The translations under genes were made by a program, and so were the position numbers. The notes under the pieces are model-generated. The model did not search any database. It was not told the origin of the DNA and saw nothing but the letters and a program-made list of their open reading frames with translations. A stretch of 64,000 nt of DNA from a virus: positions 110,281 through 174,280 of the IMG/VR virus record IMGVR_UViG_3300036985_006248; one strand, 5' to 3'. Positions 2,397-57,948 of this stretch are shown here, piece after piece; within the stretch, counting starts at the first letter, position 1, and every line of letters starts with the position of its first letter.

Positions 2397-5300
2397 TCAG
2401 CCTAACAATTTAAACGTATGCTTAATACTTCTTGTACTAAATCCCCAAGTATCATCGTATTGTAACTTTCCTAGATATGGTCGGTTAAGCCAAATCTTAT
2501 CACGCTTTGGGTCAACCCCCCAGCATTTAATATTGGTAAGTTTATTTGTAATATCTGTAGTTTCTAGAATCCAGAATATCTTGCCGTTTTTTGTTTTCTT
2601 CTCAGTAATTTTACGTGGGATAAACCATACTACCTCACCCAATGATGGGTCATAATCACCAATCGGTGGAATATATTTATCTTCAATGCTTTTTAAAGTC
2701 GCCGGGTCGAGCACAAGATTAATTGGATAAACTCCCGATAGCGAGACAAGATTTTCAATAGTTTCTTCCGTAGTAAAACTGCCTTCTGGCTTGTACTTGT
2801 CTATGTTCTCCAGCAGCTTCTTTGGTGTCTTTGGACGGTCAACCACTACTGCCGACCAAAAGTGTTTTAACCCAGTGAATCTCTTATCAACCAAAGAAGG
2901 CAAAGCGTTGCTTCTTGTTAAAGCGTCAAGGGCTTTTTTGTTTAACTTACTATAAATTATCTCTTCATTAAACAGCAGTTCCTCGACTGTCTTGAAAGGT
3001 CGATATTTCATTATTTCTGTCATGGCTGTATCTCCAAGTCCCTTAATAGATGACAGAGGTTGAATAAGTGTTTTATCGTCTAGGTTATCGACTTCCCATT
3101 TCGTACCTGAATTGTTGATATCGAGTGGCTTGATGTTAAACCCATAGTATTTTGCTAGAGAAATAGCAGCTTCCTTTTTTTCCTCCGGTTCTTTATCGAG
3201 AAACGCCGCCGCCCATTCTGCTGGATGATGATGGAACAGGTAAGCACACTGATAAGAAATTATAGAATAACAGATAGCGTGTGATAAATTGAAACCGTAC
3301 CCTGAAAAGAATTCCATAGTCTTCCAGAGATCGATACCGTTTTCTTCTGTTAATCCCTTCTCCACACACCCGTCAATAAACTTCTGATAAAGCTTAAGCT
3401 TGACTTGTGCTTCCTTGCCAGTTCCTTTCTTGGTGAGAACCTTCCGTAGTTCATTACCTTCATCTAGGGAAATGTTTTTACCAAGTTTGTGCGCTAACAT
3501 GCTTAATTGCTCTTGGAAAACTATGAATCCATGGGTTTCTTGCGTCACTTCTTTAATTAATGGATGAGCATATTTTATAGACTCAGGATTATTCTTAGCT
3601 AAGATATAATTCTCATGTACGTTTGCCGATAAAGGACCGGGACGGAAGATAGAAGTAATGGCCGCGATATCTATGATGTTTTTTGGTTTAGCTAACATGC
3701 AGAATTTCTGAGCATTTTTGCTAGTGAACTGGAATGTTCCACAGAAGTTTCCTTCTTGGAAAATGTGTTCATAGACACCTTGGTCGTCTAGATTGATCTT
3801 TTCTGGATGGAGATTATCATTGTAATACTTCTTGATATCCTCAAAGGTGGGCGTAGCAATGCCGTGGTGTCTTTTAAGAATGTGTTCAATCGCTGTTTCA
3901 ATCATACGAAGAGAAGCAAGACCAAGAATATCAAACTTGATAAACCCAAGTGGCTCTAAATGACGTACTGTTTGTCCTTCAGTCCAAGGGGTTTGTACAG
4001 TGCCACCACTATTGATTAGAGGCATCTTTTCATTGATATTATCTGCAAACAAAACTCCACCAGCATGGCGCGAAATAGAACGTACTTGCTTCTGCAAGTT
4101 TTCAACGTGTGTCGCAACATGGGGATACTTTTTGATGTAAGCATTGAGTGCGGGACTGTGTTCCTTTAACTCTTCCCAAGTCGGTTCATATACACCAGCT
4201 ATAATGCCGTGTATTTTCTTGCAAATAGGAGTAGCTTCGTTGAGCATCTTAGAAGTGACTTCGTTCACGTCTGTAAAAGGGATTTCGTATAACTTGCTAA
4301 TATCTTTTACTAGAGAACGTGGCTTTAGAGTATTGTAGTTGGAAATAGGAACTACCGAGTTTTCTCCATACTCTTTGATAAGCAATTCCTTAATTGCCAT
4401 AGGGTCGGAAACGTCAAAATCGATATCGGGCATATCACTAAGATCTGTTTTGCGGATAAAACGTGAAAACTGTAATTTATACTTGATAGGGTCTATTTCT
4501 GTAATATTTAGCAAATATGATACAAGAGAACCCGCTCCAGAACCACGGCCACCACCGCATAACTGTACTTCTTTGGACTTGTCGCTAATCTTCTTCATAG
4601 TCAAGAAGTATTTTGAGAATCCACGGTCTTTAATGGTGTGAAGTTCTTCTTTTAATCTCTCAACGTAAGCGTTGTCTTTATAAAGCCCAGTGCTCTTTAA
4701 CTTATCGACTGCCATTTTGGCTAATGCGGTATCTGCGGTTTCACCTTCGGGAACAACGAATGAAGGCAACTTAATGCTCGTATCGGGAATATAATTCTCA
4801 ATACGGTTCTTAAGAATATCGTCTGTACGAGCAATAGACTCTTCGATAAGCTTATCATCATAGGAAAAGCCAAGGTTTTTTGAGAATAGTTTATAGGAGG
4901 CAAACAATTCATCGCCGTTCTTGGGATAAAGCTGATATTCCATCGCTTCTAGAGTAGAAGGCAGTGCGTCGATTTTAATTTCATTTCCACCCTTACCAGC
5001 CCAACCGAGCATCTTATAGATTTCGCGGTCCTTCCACATATCCGGTGAAGGAAAGTGTGCATCACACGTACTGATGAGCTTGAAGCCTAGCTGTTTAGAA
5101 ATATTGATGATATATTGATTAACAATGTGTTGCTCTTTGTAATTCGCCCACTGTAATTCACCATAAAAGCGATCACCAAAGATATCCATCATAGACTTAA
5201 CAGTCTTTTCCATGGCAGCGTAAACAGCCCTTTCTCCCTTGTCGATATTATCCCAATAATCATTGGCTAACACTCCACCCAGACAGGCAGAACTGGCGAT

Positions 5301-5834
5301 GAGTCCTTCGTTGTGCTTCTTGAGCATTTCATAATCCATACGTGGGTAGCGATAAAAGTTATCACCACGATATGAATCACTAACCAACTTGAAAAGATTG
5401 TTTAAACCAATCTGGTTTTGGGCTACCAACACCAAGTGCGAACGACGATTTAAGGTTGAACGAATGCCTTTCTTAGTTTCGCTTTCATTTTCGACAACTA
5501 GTCCAACATCGTCGTCAACATGCTTTGCAAGCTTGGCGTCATCTTTGTGCTTGCTGTGTTCTCCCTTCCATTGAATTATGGATGGGTGGACGTATGCCTC
5601 AATACCATACATAACGCGAAAATCTTTACCTTCTTCTTTCATCTTCTTCGCCTTCATAAAAGCATAGCTAAAGCTATTGCAATTTCCATGCTCTGTAAAA
5701 GCAATACCTTGCAGTCCATTTTGAAAGCCGAAATCGATATGTTCTTCGGGATACCCGAGGCCATCAAAAATAGAATATGTAGTGTGCGTATGCAGGTTCA
5801 CGAAAGGAATACTGGTCTTCTTGCGCTCTGACAT
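2397..5834 (-). CDS. dnaE: DNA polymerase III alpha subunit (family C)
   Basis: PHP domain (LHTHTTYSIFDG, TEHGN), GRGSGAGSLV, PDIDFD, HAGGV, KFDILGL, YGFNLSHA. Confidence 0.97.
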   Translation of the reverse strand: MSERKKTSIPFVNLHTHTTYSIFDGLGYPEEHIDFGFQNGLQGIAFTEHGNCNSFSYAFMKAKKMKEEGKDFRVMYGIEAYVHPSIIQWKGEHSKHKDDAKLAKHVDDDVGLVVENESETKKGIRSTLNRRSHLVLVAQNQIGLNNLFKLVSDSYRGDNFYRYPRMDYEMLKKHNEGLIASSACLGGVLANDYWDNIDKGERAVYAAMEKTVKSMMDIFGDRFYGELQWANYKEQHIVNQYIINISKQLGFKLISTCDAHFPSPDMWKDREIYKMLGWAGKGGNEIKIDALPSTLEAMEYQLYPKNGDELFASYKLFSKNLGFSYDDKLIEESIARTDDILKNRIENYIPDTSIKLPSFVVPEGETADTALAKMAVDKLKSTGLYKDNAYVERLKEELHTIKDRGFSKYFLTMKKISDKSKEVQLCGGGRGSGAGSLVSYLLNITEIDPIKYKLQFSRFIRKTDLSDMPDIDFDVSDPMAIKELLIKEYGENSVVPISNYNTLKPRSLVKDISKLYEIPFTDVNEVTSKMLNEATPICKKIHGIIAGVYEPTWEELKEHSPALNAYIKKYPHVATHVENLQKQVRSISRHAGGVLFADNINEKMPLINSGGTVQTPWTEGQTVRHLEPLGFIKFDILGLASLRMIETAIEHILKRHHGIATPTFEDIKKYYNDNLHPEKINLDDQGVYEHIFQEGNFCGTFQFTSKNAQKFCMLAKPKNIIDIAAITSIFRPGPLSANVHENYILAKNNPESIKYAHPLIKEVTQETHGFIVFQEQLSMLAHKLGKNISLDEGNELRKVLTKKGTGKEAQVKLKLYQKFIDGCVEKGLTEENGIDLWKTMEFFSGYGFNLSHAICYSIISYQCAYLFHHHPAEWAAAFLDKEPEEKKEAAISLAKYYGFNIKPLDINNSGTKWEVDNLDDKTLIQPLSSIKGLGDTAMTEIMKYRPFKTVEELLFNEEIIYSKLNKKALDALTRSNALPSLVDKRFTGLKHFWSAVVVDRPKTPKKLLENIDKYKPEGSFTTEETIENLVSLSGVYPINLVLDPATLKSIEDKYIPPIGDYDPSLGEVVWFIPRKITEKKTKNGKIFWILETTDITNKLTNIKCWGVDPKRDKIWLNRPYLGKLQYDDTWGFSTRSIKHTFKLLG

Positions 5835-5853: not shown

Positions 5854-6561
5854 CTATACCACGTTAGTTTCTTCTTTCCAAATTTTTTTATTTATCAAAA
5901 GATAAATTGTGGTGCAAGATACATCATATTTTTTAGATAAAGATTTTGTTGTATTTCCTGATTCGTGTAATTGTCGTATTTCCCTAGCCTTACCCCAATC
6001 TAATTTAGACATAGGATTTATTCTTTTTTTGGCTTTTTTTCTCATTAATTCTATAGTTTCGGCAGAGTGTTTTTTTCCATACATTGGATTCTTCTCGTTC
6101 TGTCTATTGCCTATAGCTTCTCTGATTTTTTGTTTGGTTGCATTCGTGAGCTTCTTGCCGTATGCCGGTGCGAGATGTCCCTTTTTTCCATACATCGGAT
6201 TCCTCTCCCCAGAAACGTCTGCGTGATTTTCGCTTATTCTTTTTTTGGCATCTTCACTGTATTTAATGCCCAAAGTAGAACTCGCAATTTTACAGATGTT
6301 ATATTCCGGCGTTAGAATGTCTAGAAAGTGCTGCTCTCTTAGTAACAAGCTATTGATATCAATTATTTCTTCTAGGACTTCGAATATAAAGTTTTCTTTT
6401 CCGTATTTGTCCCAAGCTCTTTGTAAATGATAATTACTATGGGTTTTGTTTTTTAATTCGCTAACGTGAGTAGAAAATCTATTTTTTATATCCACCGCGC
6501 TACCAATATAAAATTTACCATTAATACGATTTGTTATTTTATAAATGCCAGATTTTTTCAT
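5854..6561 (-). CDS. free-standing GIY-YIG homing endonuclease with NUMOD3 repeats
   Basis: GIYKITN...FYIGSA; NPMYGKKH repeats; C-terminal HTH. Confidence 0.92.
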   Translation of the reverse strand: MKKSGIYKITNRINGKFYIGSAVDIKNRFSTHVSELKNKTHSNYHLQRAWDKYGKENFIFEVLEEIIDINSLLLREQHFLDILTPEYNICKIASSTLGIKYSEDAKKRISENHADVSGERNPMYGKKGHLAPAYGKKLTNATKQKIREAIGNRQNEKNPMYGKKHSAETIELMRKKAKKRINPMSKLDWGKAREIRQLHESGNTTKSLSKKYDVSCTTIYLLINKKIWKEETNVV

Positions 6562-7320: not shown

Positions 7321-7694
7321 TATATTTCCTCGTGGGATAATGCGTCAATTACCAGTTTATCACACACTAATGTCTTCTGTCCACATTCTTCATACAAAGT
7401 CTCTAAGGCTTTACGGAGCATATATGACACGCGCTCCATATGAGCTAGCCTGACACGTAGAACCGAGGTGGCACTATCGACTCCTTTTGGAACATCAAGA
7501 GGCGATGCCCTAGGAGGTACGCTGCAAGCTCCTATCGCAAACTCATCAAGATAGAAGTCACATTGGCGCAAGGCATTTAAAGCATTATCGCGCTCTGCCG
7601 TTAATTCATCCAGAGCGGCACATACAGCTTCGTTGAGCACCTTGATACACTTATCATAGGCTGTTTCACCTATGGATTTGTCTTTTTTCTTCAT
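7320..7694 (-). CDS. hypothetical protein
   Basis: GGAG RBS and sigma70-like promoter upstream. Confidence 0.6.
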   Translation of the reverse strand: MKKKDKSIGETAYDKCIKVLNEAVCAALDELTAERDNALNALRQCDFYLDEFAIGACSVPPRASPLDVPKGVDSATSVLRVRLAHMERVSYMLRKALETLYEECGQKTLVCDKLVIDALSHEEI

Positions 7695-7726
7695 TGTTTG
7701 ATCTCCATTGACGTTACATAGAAAAC

Positions 7727-7755
7727 AGTATAACAGATGCTTTTTGAAACATCAA
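7727..7755 (-). promoter_or_regulatory. sigma70-type promoter
   Basis: TTGATG-N17-TATACT with TG extension. Confidence 0.65.
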
Positions 7756-7757
7756 TG

Positions 7758-8138
7758 CTAAACTTGGGTCTTTAAAACATCTTTTAAACCATTTACCGCT
7801 TTATCAACTACTTTTGAGCACAGATCTAATTCCTGAGTATATTTGTACATGCCAGCTTGCATTGCTAGTAATTCCTGATTAGACATATTCTCTCTAGTTA
7901 ATGAGGTCTTTAAAATGGAATCAATCTTCATTGAACCTTTTTCCAAGGATGCAATAATTGAAGAAATGGTGCTTGAAATTTTTGAAGTTGATTCAATCTT
8001 GTTTACATGATGATTATCATGTTGTTTATTGATTGTCACATCAAATTTACTTGGTGCTGTTTTTTCTAATTGTGGACGTGGATGTTCAACAACTTTTTGT
8101 AAGCCCGCTGCTGCTATGTTAGAAAGTGGACCCGCCAT
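7758..8138 (-). CDS. type III secretion inner-rod-like protein (SctI; YscI/HrpB2/PrgJ family)
   Basis: C-terminus ELLAMQAGMYKYTQELDLCSKVVDKAVNGLKDVLKTQV fits the YscI/HrpB C-terminal pattern; 126 aa is typical of the family. Confidence 0.75.
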   Translation of the reverse strand: MAGPLSNIAAAGLQKVVEHPRPQLEKTAPSKFDVTINKQHDNHHVNKIESTSKISSTISSIIASLEKGSMKIDSILKTSLTRENMSNQELLAMQAGMYKYTQELDLCSKVVDKAVNGLKDVLKTQV

Positions 8139-8139
8139 A

Positions 8140-8619
8140 TTATCTGATATTGCTAATGGAGTTTTTTGCTGTGTCGTGTTTTGTCTTTAAAACATTTGAT
8201 ATTGATGAAAACATTGTATTTTCACGCTGCATAGCCATTTGAACCTGTAGCATTTGTGAGTTCTGAGCTGACATGCTGGCTATATCAGTATTATACTGAC
8301 CTATACCGCCTGTAGCTGCCCCAGCAATTAAGTTTGGACCGCTACCACTGCCAGAGCTACCATTTAATCCTACAACGCCTGTAGCGGCGTATGAAGCACC
8401 AGAAGTGCCCCCGACTAGATTGTTAATCGATGACACTGCTGCTGAAATAACCGCTCCACCGGGTAATGCGCTTCCCAGCAATGCAGCGCCTTGTGATACG
8501 GCAGAAGCTCCAGAATATAAAGCATCATTGACCTTTTCACCAAAGTTTTTTCCCTGTGTTTGTTTTGGTAACGTTACGTTCATTGAGAGACGATTTGGCA
8601 TACTGATTACATTACTCAT
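8140..8619 (-). CDS. type III secretion needle/filament-like protein (SctF-like)
   Basis: C-terminal helix MLQVQMAMQRENTMFSSISNVLKTKHDTAKNSISNIR; Gly/Ser/Ala-rich N-terminal part; directly upstream of the SctI-like gene. Confidence 0.6.
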   Translation of the reverse strand: MSNVISMPNRLSMNVTLPKQTQGKNFGEKVNDALYSGASAVSQGAALLGSALPGGAVISAAVSSINNLVGGTSGASYAATGVVGLNGSSGSGSGPNLIAGAATGGIGQYNTDIASMSAQNSQMLQVQMAMQRENTMFSSISNVLKTKHDTAKNSISNIR

Positions 8620-8685
8620 AACTGTTTCCTTTAAAAAAAAAGTACCTATAGTAATTATCGGAGAATCATTGAACTAGTTGCTTAA

Positions 8686-8895
8686 TTACAATATTTTTTT
8701 TAATTCTAGTTTCCATCCCAAGGCTGTATACTCATCAACCCAATTACGTCTATTATCGTTCCAATATATTATCCATCGTCGATCATGATGTCCGGTTTCT
8801 TCTACGACGATACCAAATTTCTTTCTCAAATCGTCCCAAAGCAAATCACCTGTTTTTATACTCAAGATATTACTTCTTTCTAGTGGAGATATCAA
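8686..8895 (-). CDS. hypothetical protein (SH3-like small fold)
   Basis: KTGDLL..FGIVVE pattern. Confidence 0.5.
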   Translation of the reverse strand: MISPLERSNILSIKTGDLLWDDLRKKFGIVVEETGHHDRRWIIYWNDNRRNWVDEYTALGWKLELKKIL

Positions 8896-9142
8896 TATTT
8901 TCTTTTATCTCTTCGCCTATAGTAACATCAATTTTATGCAGCGTCCAATATACGGAATCATATTTTTGTTTTATGTACTGAAGCTCAAAAAGATAATCTA
9001 GATTCATGTTTTCTGAAAATGTCTCTCGTATATCACCATCGCTATCTATAAAAGCATACATCTTTCTCTTGCAAGTGCATTGTTGGTCAGGATATCCCGC
9101 GTCACAATACGCACAATTATACCATTTGGTTGCATCGTTCAT
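8870..9142 (-). CDS. hypothetical protein
   Basis: CAYC..CTC; in operon. Confidence 0.5.
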   Translation of the reverse strand: MNDATKWYNCAYCDAGYPDQQCTCKRKMYAFIDSDGDIRETFSENMNLDYLFELQYIKQKYDSVYWTLHKIDVTIGEEIKENIDISTRKK

Positions 9143-9348
9143 TAAAGAACCTTTACTTGCATATATTCGTATTCTTCTGCCTTAATAAATTCATCAAAAG
9201 AGTATGTTCTAACTTCTTCGGACTCGGTATCTAAATACGTAATATACGCATCCTTAAGAAAAGTCATCAGCTTTTTCTTATTTGAAAAATACCACTCTTC
9301 GGTAGATGGATAATGATAAAGTTTATAGATTTTCATTTGGCTGCTCAC
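9142..9348 (-). CDS. hypothetical protein
   Basis: Overlapping operon ORF. Confidence 0.5.
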   Translation of the reverse strand: MSSQMKIYKLYHYPSTEEWYFSNKKKLMTFLKDAYITYLDTESEEVRTYSFDEFIKAEEYEYMQVKVL

Positions 9349-9806
9349 GACGCGACCTCCGTGCGGAAGACCTCATTGTGCGCCCGCTTCCACGTTGAGC
9401 GGGAAGGCACCTCCTCCTCGGACTCACACACGAGGTCACGAAGCGCCTCCCGCGGCCGGTCAATCTCAGCCAGCAGCACCTCGATGGCGGACGCCATCTC
9501 CTTCGGAACCGGGTGGACGAAGCCTCGCACCTGCACCATTGCCTCGGGGTCGCTGTGCTTCTTCGGGAAACAGCCTTTCGTCGGGCAGTAGAAGCCGACA
9601 GAGCCACCGTCAACCTGCGCCGCACCGCACCGCTCGCAGCCACCATCAGCCGCATCAACCTCGGGAATGGCTGCGATTGCGTCGAGGTAGCCGTTCAGCT
9701 CGGCGTTCTTGGCCTCCAGTTCCGCGACGCGGGCTTGTAACGCCGTAACCCACGGTGTGCCGTCCAAGCAGTCTTCACATATGCAATCGCTAAAGTGTTT
9801 GCTCAT
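9345..9806 (-). CDS. hypothetical protein in a GC-rich island
   Basis: Start with GGA RBS; coiled coil ARVAELEAKNAELNG; CxxC pairs; strongly GC-ending codons. Confidence 0.65.
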   Translation of the reverse strand: MSKHFSDCICEDCLDGTPWVTALQARVAELEAKNAELNGYLDAIAAIPEVDAADGGCERCGAAQVDGGSVGFYCPTKGCFPKKHSDPEAMVQVRGFVHPVPKEMASAIEVLLAEIDRPREALRDLVCESEEEVPSRSTWKRAHNEVFRTEVAS

Positions 9807-9811
9807 AATTT

Positions 9812-9913
9812 TTAGTCCTTAAAGTAAATGTTATTGCGATCCATCCACGACCAGACAAGCAACAAAACTAAAATAGCTGTATCAATTCCAGCAGTATAAT
9901 AATCAATATCCAT
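9812..9913 (-). CDS. small membrane protein (33 aa)
   Basis: Manual translation MDIDYYTAGIDTAILVLLLVWSWMDRNNIYFKD; fills the gap in the operon. Confidence 0.45.
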   Translation of the reverse strand: MDIDYYTAGIDTAILVLLLVWSWMDRNNIYFKD

Positions 9914-10175
9914 ATCTTTCTCTATCTAGGTCGCCTGCCGTTTCTGGCGAAGCGAGTCTAAGTTTATACAATTCAGCACGCGCTTCATCGCGTTCTCTCA
10001 TAAATCTCTCATCATTTTCTTCTTTTGCCTTTTTATATGAATCGCGTTCCTTACGCATAGTTTCATAATCATTAAGCAAATCAGATAAGTGTTTCTCGTC
10101 TGCAATATTCATAGTGCCGCGAGCTACCATGTTAATACAATTTTCATAAGCTGAAAGCTTTATCTTAGGAGTCAT
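9903..10175 (-). CDS. hypothetical coiled-coil protein
   Basis: ERDEARAE coiled coil; in operon. Confidence 0.55.
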   Translation of the reverse strand: MTPKIKLSAYENCINMVARGTMNIADEKHLSDLLNDYETMRKERDSYKKAKEENDERFMRERDEARAELYKLRLASPETAGDLDRERYGY

Positions 10176-10417
10176 ATCACATCCTCTATAATCAAGGGGG
10201 TATCAAGTACAATCTTTCTACAAGACTTTGACACGTTGTTCGAACCCTTAAAGCTCAATGAACAAGCCATTCTTTGTTGGTTTGCTACTTGATTAAGTAA
10301 ATCACTATTTTCCTGCTTGAGATCATTGATATACATCATAAACTGATCTCGTGAAACAAAAAAATCATTTCCATTACATTCTTCCGCTACAAGGAAATGA
10401 ATATCTTCATATTTCAT
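10172..10417 (-). CDS. hypothetical protein
   Basis: AGGA RBS; 4-bp overlap. Confidence 0.55.
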   Translation of the reverse strand: MKYEDIHFLVAEECNGNDFFVSRDQFMMYINDLKQENSDLLNQVANQQRMACSLSFKGSNNVSKSCRKIVLDTPLIIEDVI

Positions 10418-55080: not shown

Positions 55081-57948
55081 TTATTTATTCTCCGTTTTTT
55101 TCTCTTCTGTAAGTAGTCGTGAGCTTAGTGATTTAAGTTTATTATCAATCTCTAACAATAATTTTTCATCTTTTTCAAAGAAGTCTTCTTTTTCTTCGTT
55201 AAAGATGCCTCTTCCTGCTCTAGAGAGATCCTTTGAGCCAGCAAATAAGTTACGATAAGCCGAAGTTACCGATTCTGGAGTGTGAGTCTTTTCTATGTGA
55301 CGGCTGCGGGCTCCTGAAGGACGTGCATCAACCGCTACTGGCTTATACCACTTGCCATTTGCTCCTTTAGTTAGATGTGACCCATCATCTCTACGACCCG
55401 GTGCTGCTAATAAATTACTTTCTTCTCCTCCAGCTTCACCCGCAGCAGCTTCTCCTCCAGCCGCTTCACCTTCCGCACCAACTTCACCACCGGGCGCGGG
55501 AACTTCGGCACCTTCTGGTGCAACGCCTAAATCAGTATTTAGTGTGCTACCGCCAACTGTGCCTGTATCTGTTGCATCACCGGATTCAACTGATTTTTCA
55601 AATTGCTTATCATAATATAAGTCTCTTTGAATACGCAAGAAATCGTTATCATTAATTTTAAATAGGTTTTCAAATACCCAACGCTTGCTAAATCCATTTT
55701 CTTTGGCTGTACTAGCGACTTCTAATTGAGCTTTAAAATGTTCTATCTCTTGTAATTCGCTAATTTTTGAAGGATTATTCAAACGTAGACGGAACTTTAA
55801 CAAATCTTCATTTCGGTAACCAAGGGTATAAAGATGGATAATACCAACCTTCTCTAACTCGCTTACTATTACTCTCTGTAGACGTTGGATGGTACGAGCG
55901 AAACGTATATCTTTTTGCGCTAAGGTGCTCTTGTCTTCTGATGCGTCTTTGCCGGATGAAAGATAAGATTGAGGTACTTTTAAAGCAGAGAAGAGTTTAT
56001 CGCGCAAGTATTGAACGTCGTCAATATCTCCTGTAAACTCACCACCCTTCAAATTTTCAATTTTTGTTCCGCTTTGTGTCCCACGAACAGGAATATAAAA
56101 GTCTTCATCGATGCTCATAGGGTTATAACGCAAGTCAACACGACCAGTGTTTGGATCAACTATTTGGTTGCGCTTCATCTGCGTCACTATCTTTTGAATA
56201 TATTGTTCAACTTCTGGTGGTGAAACATTTCCAACGTCAATGTAGAAAACTCTGCGTTCTGGCGAGCGCACGATGCGATATGCCATCATCGCATCCTCCA
56301 TTAAATTTAATTGTCTCCATATCCTTCTGGCAGGCTCCAACACTGAAGTTCCATAAGGTGAATATTTATCTTGTCCTAGAATTCTGAAATGGGCTATCTG
56401 CCAGTTTTCAAATGTAATACCGGCGCTGTTCCATTGAAACTGTACATAATTTGGATTGCTTTCGTCCTCTCCTTCTAGACGCTCTACTTCAGGTGAAGGT
56501 AAGCCCAAGACACTCTTAACACCGATCTTTTCATCGATATCTAAATAAAGAAAGAAATCACCAAACTTACACATTGTGCGGCACCAAGAAAACAAATTTG
56601 ATTCAAGGTTTAATATATTAAAATAAAGGTGATGTAATATATTTTTAATTTCTTCATTCTTGCTATCGATAATAACAACTTGACGGTATTGGTTACTTGT
56701 TGTCATTTCATCGGCATAAATATCCATGGTCGATGCAATCTCGGGCGTGTTATGAGATATCACACTATCAGTAGCAAAGTTTTTGTACCCGTCTACGGTT
56801 AAGTCATATAAATCAATAAACCCGTAATATTCAACAGAAGCAACCTTATGGTTGGCGTAATTCTCCGCAAAATCTGTAAAGTTTTTGTAACCGTTAGCTC
56901 TAATACGGTTATTTAACTTCATGTAGGTCGTGCCGAGTTTTTCTGCTAGCTGATTTGAATTCATGTCCTTTGTGTAGGCAGAACAAATCATATTAAAATC
57001 TAAAGTCTTGTCAAAACGAGGGTTTTTATCACCATCATTATTCTGTCCCGCGTTTTTCCAATCGGCATTGTAAGTTTTGGCAAATACTTCGAAGTTCTTA
57101 AAACCTTTGGACTTTAATTTGCGTTTAATTGTCGGCGGATTTGTGTTCAAAATCTTGCACAGATTATTTTGATTGTATCCTCTAGTATCACAAACGCTCA
57201 ATATCTTTTCAAACGTAATATCTTTACGTTCCGCAGGATTGTTGTTCTTCATCCATTCTGAATGTCGCTTGCTAAATTGGTCCCACCAACCATCTTCTTC
57301 ATCTTTCTGACCGTGGATCAAATCTTTACGGTAAAAGGGCATCATGGCATCACCAGTTTTAAGTTGGGAAATGGTGCGATAAGAGCCGTCTCTTAACATG
57401 AGACGGTGGTCTTCGGTTCCAATTATTTCTTGGCCGTTATCAAATGTGACTTTCCAAGCATGGTCAGTTCTCGTTTTTCTCGCTTGACGACCAATTGCTG
57501 GGACAATTTGTTTTTTTGTATGGTCGTATGAATAAACGATGAATTCCTTGTCTAATCCATTCTCGGACAACTCACGCAATGTCTTATATCCATTTGGTAC
57601 AGCAATTTTTGTATCGCCGTGAAGACAAAACTCCATTTGATCAAAGTCACTATAGCGTTCTGCACGACTTTGATTAGCCATGATGTTGCTTTGGATAGAT
57701 TCAAAGGGGTTATAGCTTTTCTTCTTGAAGTTCTGTCCGCTGGCACTAGTAAACTTATAGCGGTCTAAGTCACGACGCTTAAAACGTACCTGTGACTGGT
57801 CACGAAAACTGGATAGAGGACCAGAGAATAATCTGGTTAAGCCCGTATACAGGGGCGAATCGTTATTACGAGGATTTCTCTTTCCTCCTTGACCATTTAT
57901 TTTACTGTTTAATGGATTACCTTTTTTAAAACCGTTATTGTCTGCCAT
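55081..57948 (-). CDS. portal protein (gp20) with intein
   Basis: DIYADE, KFGDFF, PYGTSVLE, MEDAM..YRI.R.PERRVFYIDVG, EDFYIP. Confidence 0.95.
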   Translation of the reverse strand: MADNNGFKKGNPLNSKINGQGGKRNPRNNDSPLYTGLTRLFSGPLSSFRDQSQVRFKRRDLDRYKFTSASGQNFKKKSYNPFESIQSNIMANQSRAERYSDFDQMEFCLHGDTKIAVPNGYKTLRELSENGLDKEFIVYSYDHTKKQIVPAIGRQARKTRTDHAWKVTFDNGQEIIGTEDHRLMLRDGSYRTISQLKTGDAMMPFYRKDLIHGQKDEEDGWWDQFSKRHSEWMKNNNPAERKDITFEKILSVCDTRGYNQNNLCKILNTNPPTIKRKLKSKGFKNFEVFAKTYNADWKNAGQNNDGDKNPRFDKTLDFNMICSAYTKDMNSNQLAEKLGTTYMKLNNRIRANGYKNFTDFAENYANHKVASVEYYGFIDLYDLTVDGYKNFATDSVISHNTPEIASTMDIYADEMTTSNQYRQVVIIDSKNEEIKNILHHLYFNILNLESNLFSWCRTMCKFGDFFLYLDIDEKIGVKSVLGLPSPEVERLEGEDESNPNYVQFQWNSAGITFENWQIAHFRILGQDKYSPYGTSVLEPARRIWRQLNLMEDAMMAYRIVRSPERRVFYIDVGNVSPPEVEQYIQKIVTQMKRNQIVDPNTGRVDLRYNPMSIDEDFYIPVRGTQSGTKIENLKGGEFTGDIDDVQYLRDKLFSALKVPQSYLSSGKDASEDKSTLAQKDIRFARTIQRLQRVIVSELEKVGIIHLYTLGYRNEDLLKFRLRLNNPSKISELQEIEHFKAQLEVASTAKENGFSKRWVFENLFKINDNDFLRIQRDLYYDKQFEKSVESGDATDTGTVGGSTLNTDLGVAPEGAEVPAPGGEVGAEGEAAGGEAAAGEAGGEESNLLAAPGRRDDGSHLTKGANGKWYKPVAVDARPSGARSRHIEKTHTPESVTSAYRNLFAGSKDLSRAGRGIFNEEKEDFFEKDEKLLLEIDNKLKSLSSRLLTEEKKTENK
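56749..57627 (-). mobile_element. intein (293 aa) in portal
   Basis: Starts CLHGDT, block B TEDH, block F YDLTVDGYKNF, ends SHN before Thr. Confidence 0.92.

Follow-up and report, generated by a model that had tools for sequence, protein, structure and literature searches.

Two small genes lie head to tail on the minus strand of the window, the 64,000-nt stretch of viral DNA that was analysed. The upstream gene, F (P0001; 8140..8619, stop included), encodes a predicted needle/filament-like exported subunit of 159 aa, and the downstream gene, I (P0002; 7758..8138, stop included), an SctI-like inner-rod-type subunit of 126 aa. A single base (8139..8139) separates the F stop codon (8140-8142) from the I ATG (8136-8138), so the genes are tightly coupled; these are exactly the ORFs that an earlier sequence-only reading had described. 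No clear Shine-Dalgarno sequence precedes I. The 66 nt 5′ of F (8620..8685, minus strand; coding strand AAAGGAAACAGTT-ATG) form an AT-rich spacer of 0.29 GC, in which the ribosome-binding site AAGGAA stands 6 nt 5′ of the start codon. That reading had also given the pair an upstream region of its own, of which the AT-richness and the ribosome-binding site stand; the promoter and terminator scan stayed at chance level (9 sigma-70-like sites against 7.9 expected in shuffled sequence). The spacer may be the home of the cassette's own promoter. The proteins end in ...QVQMAMQRENTMFSSISNVLKTKHDTAKNSISNIR (F) and ...ELLAMQAGMYKYTQELDLCSKVVDKAVNGLKDVLKTQV (I).

The source record is a T4-like myovirus of 174 kb, about 96% complete and of 37.8% GC, in which sheath, capsid, portal and terminase genes are present and no integrase was found; the phage is large, T4-like and virulent. 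Most of its 15 tRNAs read codons that end in A or U. The pair is flanked on either side by phage genes of its own strand and sits amid small early-type genes adjoining the replication genes, outside the structural module. Its composition is phage-like (0.39 GC; GC3 0.33 and 0.25), as had been proposed from the letters, and it lies about 700 nt from a separate GC island (~9350-9800, 65-67% GC). The single relative of the island's ORF is partial and comes from a T4-like contig of 56% GC; no bacterial relative was found, nor any real DNA match in 208 Myxococcaceae genomes. When 16 proteins of the bacterial type III secretion system (T3SS) locus were compared with the whole 174-kb record by tblastn, F and I alone were recovered, which extends to the full genome the earlier remark that ring, export-gate and ATPase genes are absent. 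HMMs of both families revealed no extra copy of F or I, and the phage has neither a chaperone gene for F nor a CHAP gene.

Identification of I as SctI-like rests on sub-threshold profiles, synteny and a helical-hairpin fold, all of which agree with its first assignment. I matched PF17001 with 20.3 bits (E 7.6e-4, cut-off 32.4) and the SctI model NF038054 with 18.4 bits (E 1.8e-3, cut-off 39), both below the curated cut-off, and the match covers the C-terminal 75 residues. Within the I family, 28/69 members hit PF17001 at E<=0.01 (best 3.3e-5); the precomputed, newer Pfam label of the family is PF09392. The AF2 model of I is a helical hairpin (H47-81/H87-124, pLDDT 74-90). VIA-align on this model was uninformative (best Z 5.7, single helices only), as fold searches cannot distinguish such hairpins, and no PDB chain matched the I-family profile. 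In ysc and prg gene order, yscI and prgJ lie directly 5′ of sctJ; the bacterial orthologue of I likewise adjoins sctJ on its 5′ side in all loci with enough flank. I thus resembles the SctI rods (YscI, PrgJ, MxiI, EscI; PF17001, NF038054) in its small size, C-terminal profile match and predicted hairpin, and differs from them in being phage-encoded without other T3SS genes and in belonging to a parent system that has no secretin. Compared with its bacterial orthologues, phage I keeps the N-terminal motif MAGPLxxIxAxxxQ...PSKFD and the C-terminal hairpin, lacks about 50 residues of the Gln-rich middle, and carries four fixed changes (K74A, E112D, S116N and T121V) at positions 94-100% constant in 68 bacterial copies.

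F is a copy of a conserved 175-185-aa gene that lies 5′ of a TPR chaperone-like gene in a myxobacterial T3SS locus. Its homologues (n=777) share 58-72% identity over 96-100% of length, and its last 26 residues are identical to those of many bacterial copies. The N-terminus is conserved (MPNRxSMNVTxPKQTQGxxFGEKV) and is followed by a Gly/Ser-rich middle and a long C-terminal helix; the phage copies retain 26 of the 30 columns that bacteria conserve, with no column switched. The upstream protein had been taken for an SctF-type subunit. What remains of this assignment is a C-terminal match to PF09392 over residues 113-158, which is not significant (12.5 bits, E 0.17, cut-off 29.4), together with hits at E<=0.1 for 20/77 members of the family (best 0.013), the PDB needle fragment 7y6c_F at E 0.1, and one neighbouring Atlas cluster in which 11% of the members belong to PF09392. 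The AF2 model (mean pLDDT 56) has helices at 26-48, 56-69 and 109-158, with 70-108 disordered. F as a canonical SctF was rejected on its size, its two N-terminal helices, the disordered Gly/Ser-rich 70-108 and the one long C-terminal helix: the 70-90-residue helix-turn-helix of SctF contrasts with the 159 aa of phage F and the 175-185 aa of its bacterial relatives. Like the SctF needles and filaments (YscF, PrgI, MxiH, SsaG; EspA; PF09392), F has a weak C-terminal helix match and, in the AF2 model, a helix-loop-long helix architecture, but it departs from them in having double the size of a needle subunit and a 40-residue Gly/Ser-rich insert. EspA-type filament proteins are nearer to it in size, with no sequence link found. 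F appears only weakly SctF-like, and with 159-185 aa and a Gly-rich insert it is needle-like at best. Foldseek on the F and I models was uninformative for such simple helical folds, and the two families matched each other only insignificantly by hhalign (E 0.12), so that a common origin of F and I is not shown.

In bacteria, a conserved gene for a 147-aa TPR protein lies 3′ of F in 78-80 loci, just as yscG comes after yscF in ysc gene order. Modelling phage F with the bacterial TPR protein in ESMFold2 gave a score of 0.40 against 0.00 for the best control, a result of weak support: the mark was reached by 58/80 solved complexes and 2/110 mismatched pairs, and 7/80 solved complexes and both mismatches scored at 0.60 or under. 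At least 64% of contacts agreed between the runs, with a partner pLDDT of at least 46. The score may be driven by likeness to solved needle-chaperone complexes.

Homologues of F and I occur by the hundreds in Myxococcota of ~67% GC (Archangium, Cystobacter, Vitiosangium and many MAGs). I gave 130 matches and is present in 109 species-level Myxococcota genomes, including cultured Cystobacter fuscus, Archangium gephyra, A. minus, A. violaceum and Vitiosangium; all named I and F matches belong to Archangium or Myxococcaceae MAGs. F-family matches were found in 141/151 sampled genomes of the myxobacterial family, a tally that, like the search of 208 genomes for spacers, includes one unpublished genome (G051), on which no claim rests. 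The donor locus reads 96aa, F, TPR, 136aa, sigma, I, SctJ, FliG-like, SctL, SctN, SctO, P/FliK-like, SctQ, FliO, SctR, S, T, U; by Pfam content, L001 and a 184-kb contig contain sctJ, L, N, Q, R, S, T and U, and the donor records are myxobacterial, with 56-73% GC. The 96-aa and 136-aa proteins, both without a Pfam family, were considered as relatives of F or I and proved unrelated. A second T3SS locus contains another F paralogue, directly 5′ of an SctJ-like gene. Homologue searches and locus content thus bear out the earlier view that the nearest relatives of both proteins come from myxobacterial T3SS clusters. The needle-then-rod gene order read from the phage pair does not hold in the donors: bacterial F lies 1.6-1.9 kb 5′ of I in about 70 loci with three genes between, and the two are adjacent in phage contigs only.

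Nor is the parent machine the classical injectisome that had been assumed; it is the secretin-less "Myxo" T3SS, and no secretin was visible within +/-10 kb of the donor loci. The loci resemble the "Myxo" NF-T3SS, or T3SS*, of Myxococcus xanthus (Abby & Rocha 2012, PMC3459982) in that they are likewise from Myxococcaceae/Archangiaceae, encode SctJ, L, N, O, Q, R, S, T and U with an inner-rod gene, contain flagellar-like FliG, FliO and FliK domains and show no secretin within 10 kb. The donor locus is a candidate orthologue of the M. xanthus predation locus mxan_2434-2464. The myxobacterial T3SS has been described as needleless, or lacking SctF (PMC3459982, PMC10433427, PMC12075869), whereas here an F family with a needle-like C-terminus is found in both T3SS loci.

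In a concatenated tree, eight phage pairs from independent metagenomes formed one clade (SH-aLRT 100) on a long stem branch (0.4), nested among uncultured "Archangium sp." MAGs (starred sets of 26, 27 and 31 rows). The phage copies are fully ameliorated, with GC3 of 0.21-0.47 against 0.91 in bacteria. Synonymous differences between phage copies are saturated (pS 0.65-0.91) and nonsynonymous ones are low (pN 0.16-0.29), and the N-terminal motifs of F and I are nearly invariant across phage and bacteria. The pair is syntenic in the relative L004, an independent contig from another sample, and lies elsewhere in the relatives L005 and L006, on the strand opposite its neighbours; at least seven more phage-type sequence clusters contain it. 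These data establish a single old capture by an ancestor of the phage group from an Archangium-like Myxococcaceae T3SS locus, with loss of the three intervening genes (TPR chaperone-like, 136-aa and sigma factor) to leave a compact, translationally coupled unit; the two-gene cassette has since been kept by purifying selection and has moved as a unit within phage genomes. The pair thus has the marks of a host-derived accessory gene set: nesting within host diversity, phage composition, purifying selection and residence in a bona fide phage. That bacterial DNA was mis-joined into the phage contig, or contaminated it, has a practically negligible probability. Nothing was found in its favour. Phage-like composition and GC3, phage genes on both flanks and the syntenic pair in another sample all speak against it, and, at the level of contigs, L004 synteny, the at least seven further clusters and synonymous saturation relative to both bacterial and other phage copies dispose of the assembly chimera by which the first reading might have failed.

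No match to the region or to either protein was found by megablast and tblastn among 50,697 cultured phage records, nor any other carrier among IMG/VR viral contigs. A scan of JGI metagenomes for more carriers and for co-occurrence returned 80 loci; all but four short ones were bacterial, with 56-73% GC. Published reports of phage genes for T3SS structural subunits were likewise absent from the literature searched, in line with the earlier impression that no such cassette had been described. Phages do carry copies that replace high-turnover host parts, such as cyanophage psbA, and T3SS effectors, as in the SopE phage. The F/I cassette resembles these psbA-type auxiliary genes and SopE-phage effectors in being host-derived, phage-borne, adapted to phage composition and maintained by purifying selection and, like the latter, in being tied to the host's secretion machine, but its products are structural, polymerising machine subunits, not cargo or a metabolic enzyme.

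The neighbourhood of the pair in relatives bears on whether F and I still serve a T3SS at all. In L004 and in a 10-kb JGI contig, a gene for a PG_binding_1-CHAP hydrolase lies directly 5′ of the pair. This adjacency, with the old divergence from the bacterial copies, would suit a new job outside any T3SS, as the phage's own polymerising lysis or envelope-crossing part or as a virion component. We consider such a role very unlikely, since a CHAP gene is absent from the window's phage and the pair is grouped with small early-type genes by the replication genes, not with the structural module. Moreover, had the original partners been lost, it would be difficult to account for termini that still agree so closely, in both F and I, with those of the bacterial copies.

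A myxobacterium is a candidate host of the phage, and the hints go both ways. A Shine-Dalgarno core precedes 38% of phage genes against 7% at random positions, whereas in a Flavobacterium phage control the figures were 4% and 13%. This usage favours a myxobacterial host, as do the island of 66% GC and the conserved N-termini of export type; the island was dropped as host evidence, its sole relative being partial and on the 56%-GC T4-like contig. GC content and the nearest cultured relatives argue against such a host. All donor-type genomes are near 67% GC and the phage is at 37.8%, a gap rarely seen between a phage and its host. Flavobacterium, Microcystis and Rhodothermus are the hosts of the nearest cultured relatives (identity 42-44% in TerL, 42-49% in MCP). 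For 20 kb of the phage (window 37-57 kb), no spacer-like match was found in the 208 Myxococcaceae genomes, the only matches being to a low-complexity Gly/Ala/Glu-coding repeat at 55421-55490. The Flavobacterium phage relatives had suggested a Bacteroidota host, which the Shine-Dalgarno usage of the phage and the absence of the TAnnTTTG motif from it make unlikely. Caulobacter phage Cr30 is T4-like, with a GC content of about 38%, and infects a bacterium whose own is about 67%. It would set a precedent for a T4-like phage low in GC and rich in tRNAs that grows in a high-GC bacterium, the phage here having 15 tRNAs, and is a plausibility argument for a myxobacterial host only, as it showed no relatedness to the window's phage in anything compared.

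Low GC and the non-myxobacterial hosts of the nearest cultured relatives would also fit a phage of prey bacteria, in which a low-GC host makes the predator's axial subunits as decoys that block the incoming machine until burst. Other organisms do appear to copy exactly F and I: unrelated bacteria encode ~250-aa proteins with signal-peptide-like N-termini that combine the N- and C-terminal motifs of F with the C-terminal motif of I, one on a Bacteroidota-like contig of 37.7% GC with TAnnTTTG promoter motifs and another on a 63%-GC proteobacterium-like contig. These chimeras carry bacterial-type residues (EKATSGLKDTLKTQV) and not phage-type ones, so they represent a capture separate from the phage one. 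Having no signal peptide, phage F and I would remain in the cytoplasm of a prey cell. Both retain the extreme N-terminal motifs that in T3SS substrates serve export, and in its use of Shine-Dalgarno sites the phage differs from the Flavobacterium phage control. Defence of a prey cell is thus a distinctly unlikely purpose of the cassette.

The best explanation, which we favour tentatively and put a little short of an even chance, is that F and I are exported through the T3SS of an infected myxobacterium and co-assembled with it. The phage would infect T3SS-bearing myxobacteria and have both proteins made from its DNA during infection; their conserved N-termini would be recognised, for F also through the host's TPR chaperone, they would be exported by the host's own apparatus (SctRSTUV/SctN), and their conserved C-terminal helices would let them polymerise on the basal body of the host. 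As F and I would be the only parts of the machine consumed at each build, the phage need bring just these two. An F with no switched conserved column would fit a working replacement subunit, and I, shortened and changed at four constant positions, may give a rod that behaves differently. By analogy, the most likely purpose would be to keep or re-tune the predator's contact-dependent secretion and prey-lysis machine during host shut-off, a purpose that shares its logic with phage copies of high-turnover host proteins.

The same export route could instead serve interference. Phages often block host surface appendages, and F and I might be exported by the myxobacterial T3SS as poison or cap subunits, the altered short rod seeding or ending a defective axial structure; the phage would gain by saving energy, by stopping secretion or by removing an entry structure of other phages (superinfection exclusion). 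The four fixed changes in phage I, its missing central 50 residues and the long stem of the phage clade would suit this, as would the 193-aa protein P0244 of L004, which joins an F-type C-terminus (hhalign E 1.8e-5) to an unrelated body, as a cap or adaptor would. Yet no conserved column of F is switched, which a poison subunit would not require, both genes are retained together with the full-length termini of both conserved, and the myxobacterial machine has no known outer-membrane part usable as a receptor (PMC10433427). We judge such interference unlikely.

F is conserved in 141/151 sampled genomes, lies in both T3SS loci and has been copied by phages and by other bacteria, so that, with I, it would be the obvious choice for the axial component that the myxobacterial T3SS is said to lack. 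That a phage carries the pair suggests that this "needleless" system may have axial components worth competing for, which bears on the question of how a T3SS without needle or secretin delivers anything in predation. In its widest form, which is doubtful though not far-fetched, this idea has I and F forming an axial structure that reaches prey, with copies of exactly these two proteins made on both sides of the food web: a group of T4-like phages would carry them as a mobile cassette to hijack or disarm the machine, and unrelated prey bacteria (Bacteroidota-like and proteobacteria-like) would export the ~250-aa chimeras as decoys that display the termini of F and I. If true, three parties would be in an arms race over a single secretion needle. 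If the host machine uses the phage subunits, the pair would provide a natural probe of myxobacterial T3SS assembly, a host marker for an uncultured phage group and a new class of phage take-over genes. As a side observation, the changes in I, the CHAP hydrolase of L004 and its 193-aa protein fit interference with a host machine as well as supply to it.

The two genes lie on the minus strand of the window, with F (8140-8619, a 159-aa ORF) followed by I (7758-8138, a 126-aa ORF), and the tight coupling proposed in the sequence-only reading is borne out by the single base that separates the F stop from the I ATG. The C-terminal sequences quoted there for F and I are exact against the translated ORFs, and the pair is indeed phage-like in composition (0.39 GC) and separate from the 65-67% GC island at ~9350-9800. 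The AT-rich upstream region and ribosome-binding site proposed there are present: F is preceded by a spacer of 66 nt that is AT-rich and contains AAGGAA. A promoter in this spacer is not demonstrated, as sigma-70-like sites near the pair are no more frequent than in shuffled sequence.

A homologue search in a 5.8-billion-protein collection returned 130 relatives of I and 777 of F, with identities of 58-72% over nearly the full length of F and up to 72% over the C-terminal half of I. All named relatives of both proteins are Archangium or Myxococcaceae MAGs, in which F and I sit within a T3SS locus, in agreement with the myxobacterial affinity proposed earlier. When one genome per species was scanned, I turned up in 109 species; the best 80 are all Myxococcota, two loosely labelled MAGs apart, and cultured carriers include Cystobacter fuscus, Archangium gephyra, A. 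minus, A. violaceum, A. lansingense and Vitiosangium. Bacterial genomes with the F-I locus have 56-73% GC. The locus is conserved and comprises, in order, a 96-aa gene, F, a 147-aa TPR protein, a 136-aa gene, a sigma-70 factor, I and SctJ, followed by a FliG-like protein, SctL, SctN, SctO, a FliK-domain protein, SctQ, FliO, SctR, SctS, SctT and SctU, and the distance from F to I is 1.6-1.9 kb (~70 loci). Bacterial I is directly upstream of sctJ, the position that yscI and prgJ hold relative to the sctJ homologue in their operons, and F is followed by the TPR protein gene, an order resembling that of yscF and yscG in the ysc operon. Of 151 sampled genomes of the donor bacterial family, 141 contain F-family matches, usually in two copies. 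In one genome (L098, G002:C1:774500-794400), the second F paralogue, at about 9817-10287, belongs to another, shorter T3SS locus (patatin, a 391-aa gene, F2, SctJ-like, SctQ, SctR, SctU and SctV), where it immediately precedes the SctJ-like gene and so holds the place taken by I in the long locus. With this second locus, F counts as an integral part of T3SS loci in two contexts that are independent of each other. The conserved 136-aa gene that separates the TPR gene from the sigma factor (8893-9303 in the myxobacterial locus L001) encodes FGAKVD at the same distance from the N-terminus as FGEKVN in F, and the two may represent a short N-terminal motif shared by substrates of this T3SS.

Direct profile scans gave weak matches that all lead in the same direction, and the strong evidence lies in the homologues. 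I matched the Pfam SctI family PF17001 (E 7.6e-4) and the NCBIfam SctI family NF038054 (E 1.8e-3), both below the curated cut-offs, and 28 of 69 I-type proteins matched PF17001 at E<=0.01. The AF2 model of I is a helical hairpin (helices 47-81 and 87-124, pLDDT 74-90). Together with the position upstream of sctJ, the profiles and the hairpin uphold the SctI-like assignment of the downstream gene, and we are confident that I is a SctI-type rod subunit. F reached only E 0.17 against the needle family PF09392, below the curated cut-off, and 20 of 77 F-type proteins matched that family at E<=0.1. In its AF2 model (mean pLDDT only 56), a pair of N-terminal helices is followed by a disordered Gly/Ser-rich region and a C-terminal helix of 50 residues. 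The earlier identification of F as a needle subunit is therefore weaker than proposed. Because F departs from SctF in size and architecture, it is with moderate confidence that we regard it as a putative exported axial subunit with a needle-like C-terminus, not a canonical SctF.

Myxococcales T3SS loci have been described as possessing an inner-rod gene and lacking SctF and the secretin (Abby and Rocha, PMC3459982), and the M. xanthus predation system has later been termed a needleless T3SS*, which lyses prey together with the Kil Tad pilus (PMC10433427, PMC12075869). The locus from which F and I derive fits this type. No paper describing SctF or SctI genes carried by a phage turned up in a literature search of limited coverage, in line with the earlier statement that no described lytic phage was known to carry such a cassette. 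We class the pair among phage accessory cassettes of host origin, with a SctI-like I, and F as a T3SS-locus protein that would work like a needle or filament subunit, outside SctF as defined.

The window covers positions 110281-174280 of an IMG/VR virus record (174,280 bp, CheckV completeness 96%). This record encodes tail sheath, major head protein, portal, large terminase, ribonucleotide reductase and DnaB-type helicase, and no tyrosine integrase was found in it. Its nearest cultured relatives are all distant, namely Flavobacterium phage immuto (42% in TerL, 49% in the major capsid protein), Microcystis phage Mel-JY01 (44% and 46.5%) and Rhodothermus phage RM378 (42% in the capsid protein). 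From this gene content, the missing integrase and the distant relatives, the phage is a virulent-looking, far-T4-like myovirus from a metagenome. A probable homing endonuclease, a 235-aa ORF (5854-6561, minus strand) whose N-terminus is of GIY-YIG type (GIYKITN...YIGS), sits directly downstream of its DNA polymerase III alpha-like gene (1145 aa, 2397-5834).

F and I also occur side by side and in unchanged order on phage-like contigs from other samples. Relative to the window's pair, identity is 65-67% in L004 (35% GC), 47-56% in L005, L006 and L007 (39-45% GC), 53% (I) and 65% (F) in a 10-kb JGI contig with many small ORFs, and 52-72% in three short contigs. L004 is collinear with the window from 14.8 to 7.8 kb, placing its pair in a syntenic position. 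The fragments L005 and L006 come from less closely related phages of the same group; their pairs (L005:9532-10327 and L006:4083-4899) are on the strand opposite to their neighbours, and homologues of the flanking genes lie at 62-79 kb of this record, ~47 kb away from the pair here. This different neighbourhood and strand indicate that the pair moves as one unit, like a mobile moron. In a tree of concatenated F and I (76 rows), the eight phage pairs are monophyletic (SH-aLRT 100; stem length 0.4) and nest in starred sets of 26, 27 and 31 rows of uncultured "Archangium sp./Myxococcales" MAGs, indicating a single capture from bacteria to phage. GC3 is 0.21-0.47 in phage copies versus 0.91 in a bacterial copy, and between phage copies pS is 0.65-0.91 (saturated) and pN 0.16-0.29; the capture is therefore old and both genes are kept by purifying selection. 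The pair, mobile as a cassette, originated in a myxobacterial T3SS locus and was fused into a compact coupled unit. In L004 an enlarged module (7590-9777) contains, in order, a VWA protein, a 156-aa protein, a PG_binding_1-CHAP hydrolase, F, I and the 193-aa protein P0244. The resemblance of P0244 to the F C-terminus is confined to its final 50 residues (hhalign E 1.8e-5). A CHAP gene is also directly upstream of the pair in the 10-kb JGI contig; the window's phage has none.

In phage F, 26 of the 30 columns at least 90% conserved in bacteria are kept and none is switched, and both phage proteins retain, at the extreme N-terminus, the motifs of their bacterial counterparts. The export signal of T3SS substrates lies at the N-terminus. 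The conservation of these N-termini and of the polymerisation helices is most easily understood if F and I still encounter their original export apparatus and partners, as they would in a T3SS-bearing myxobacterial host. Rod and needle-type subunits have to be synthesised afresh for every machine, which would explain why the phage carries only these. The window had been noted to lack ring, export-gate and ATPase genes; the phage record as a whole holds no further T3SS gene, and neither a chaperone gene nor another F or I paralogue was found in it. Supply or re-tuning of the host machine is the likeliest reading, its chance falling a little short of even, and interference with that machine or exclusion seems unlikely. 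An unrelated new job for the pair appears very improbable. I has kept 35 of 64 bacterially conserved columns and lacks the Gln-rich middle, and K74A, E112D, S116N and T121V are fixed in it at four positions that are constant elsewhere. When phage F and the bacterial TPR protein were modelled as a complex, the score was 0.40 versus 0.00 for the best control, with runs agreeing in at least 64% of contacts and a partner pLDDT of at least 46. This weakly supports an interaction. Of 80 solved complexes, 58 attained the mark, as did 2 of 110 mismatched pairs; at 0.60 or under, only 7 of these 80 attained it, along with the two mismatched pairs. The score may reflect a resemblance to needle-chaperone complexes already solved.

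Several features count for a myxobacterial host: the nesting of the phage clade in the myxobacterial phylogeny, Shine-Dalgarno sequences in 38% of phage genes versus 7% at random positions (4% versus 13% for a Flavobacterium phage in the same analysis), a tRNA set biased to A/U-ending codons, and the 65-67% GC island, which points to contact with high-GC DNA. The 15 tRNA genes (record 59346-82814, outside the window; 14 clustered at 80.2-82.8 kb) mostly have wobble U, and a tRNA-Ile with anticodon UAU is present. The island lies inside a 153-aa ORF (9345-9806) of this 38%-GC phage; it had no real match in 208 Myxococcaceae genomes, and the ORF's only relative covers 36 residues, at 78% identity, of a 94-aa gene carried by a T4-like contig with 56% GC. 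Against such a host count the 30-point GC gap between phage and donor-type genomes, the hosts of the nearest cultured phage relatives and the lack of a spacer-like match between window 37-57 kb and 208 Myxococcaceae genomes. Caulobacter phage Cr30 is reportedly a precedent for such a gap. A role of the pair as a decoy in a prey host is judged rather improbable.

About 17 clusters of 235-272-aa proteins (P0200, P0226, P0238, P0239 and ~13 more) occur on non-myxobacterial contigs, with genes at L095:6001-6774 and L097:372-1109 among them. Each begins with a signal-peptide-like stretch and contains the F N-terminal motif (sometimes twice), a Gly-rich part and the F C-terminal motif, interleaved with other sequence, as well as the I C-terminal motif EKATSGLKDTLKTQV; the F and I motifs carry bacterial-type residues. 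These chimeras look like exported displays of F and I termini and may be decoys against myxobacterial T3SS or predation; because of this resemblance, a three-way arms race can be envisaged. Two clusters have the source names Flavobacterium sp. and Sphingomonas sp., and of two contigs examined, one is 37.7% GC and Bacteroidota-like with TAnnTTTG motifs and the other 63% GC and proteobacterium-like. The chimera genes are single and lie among housekeeping genes.
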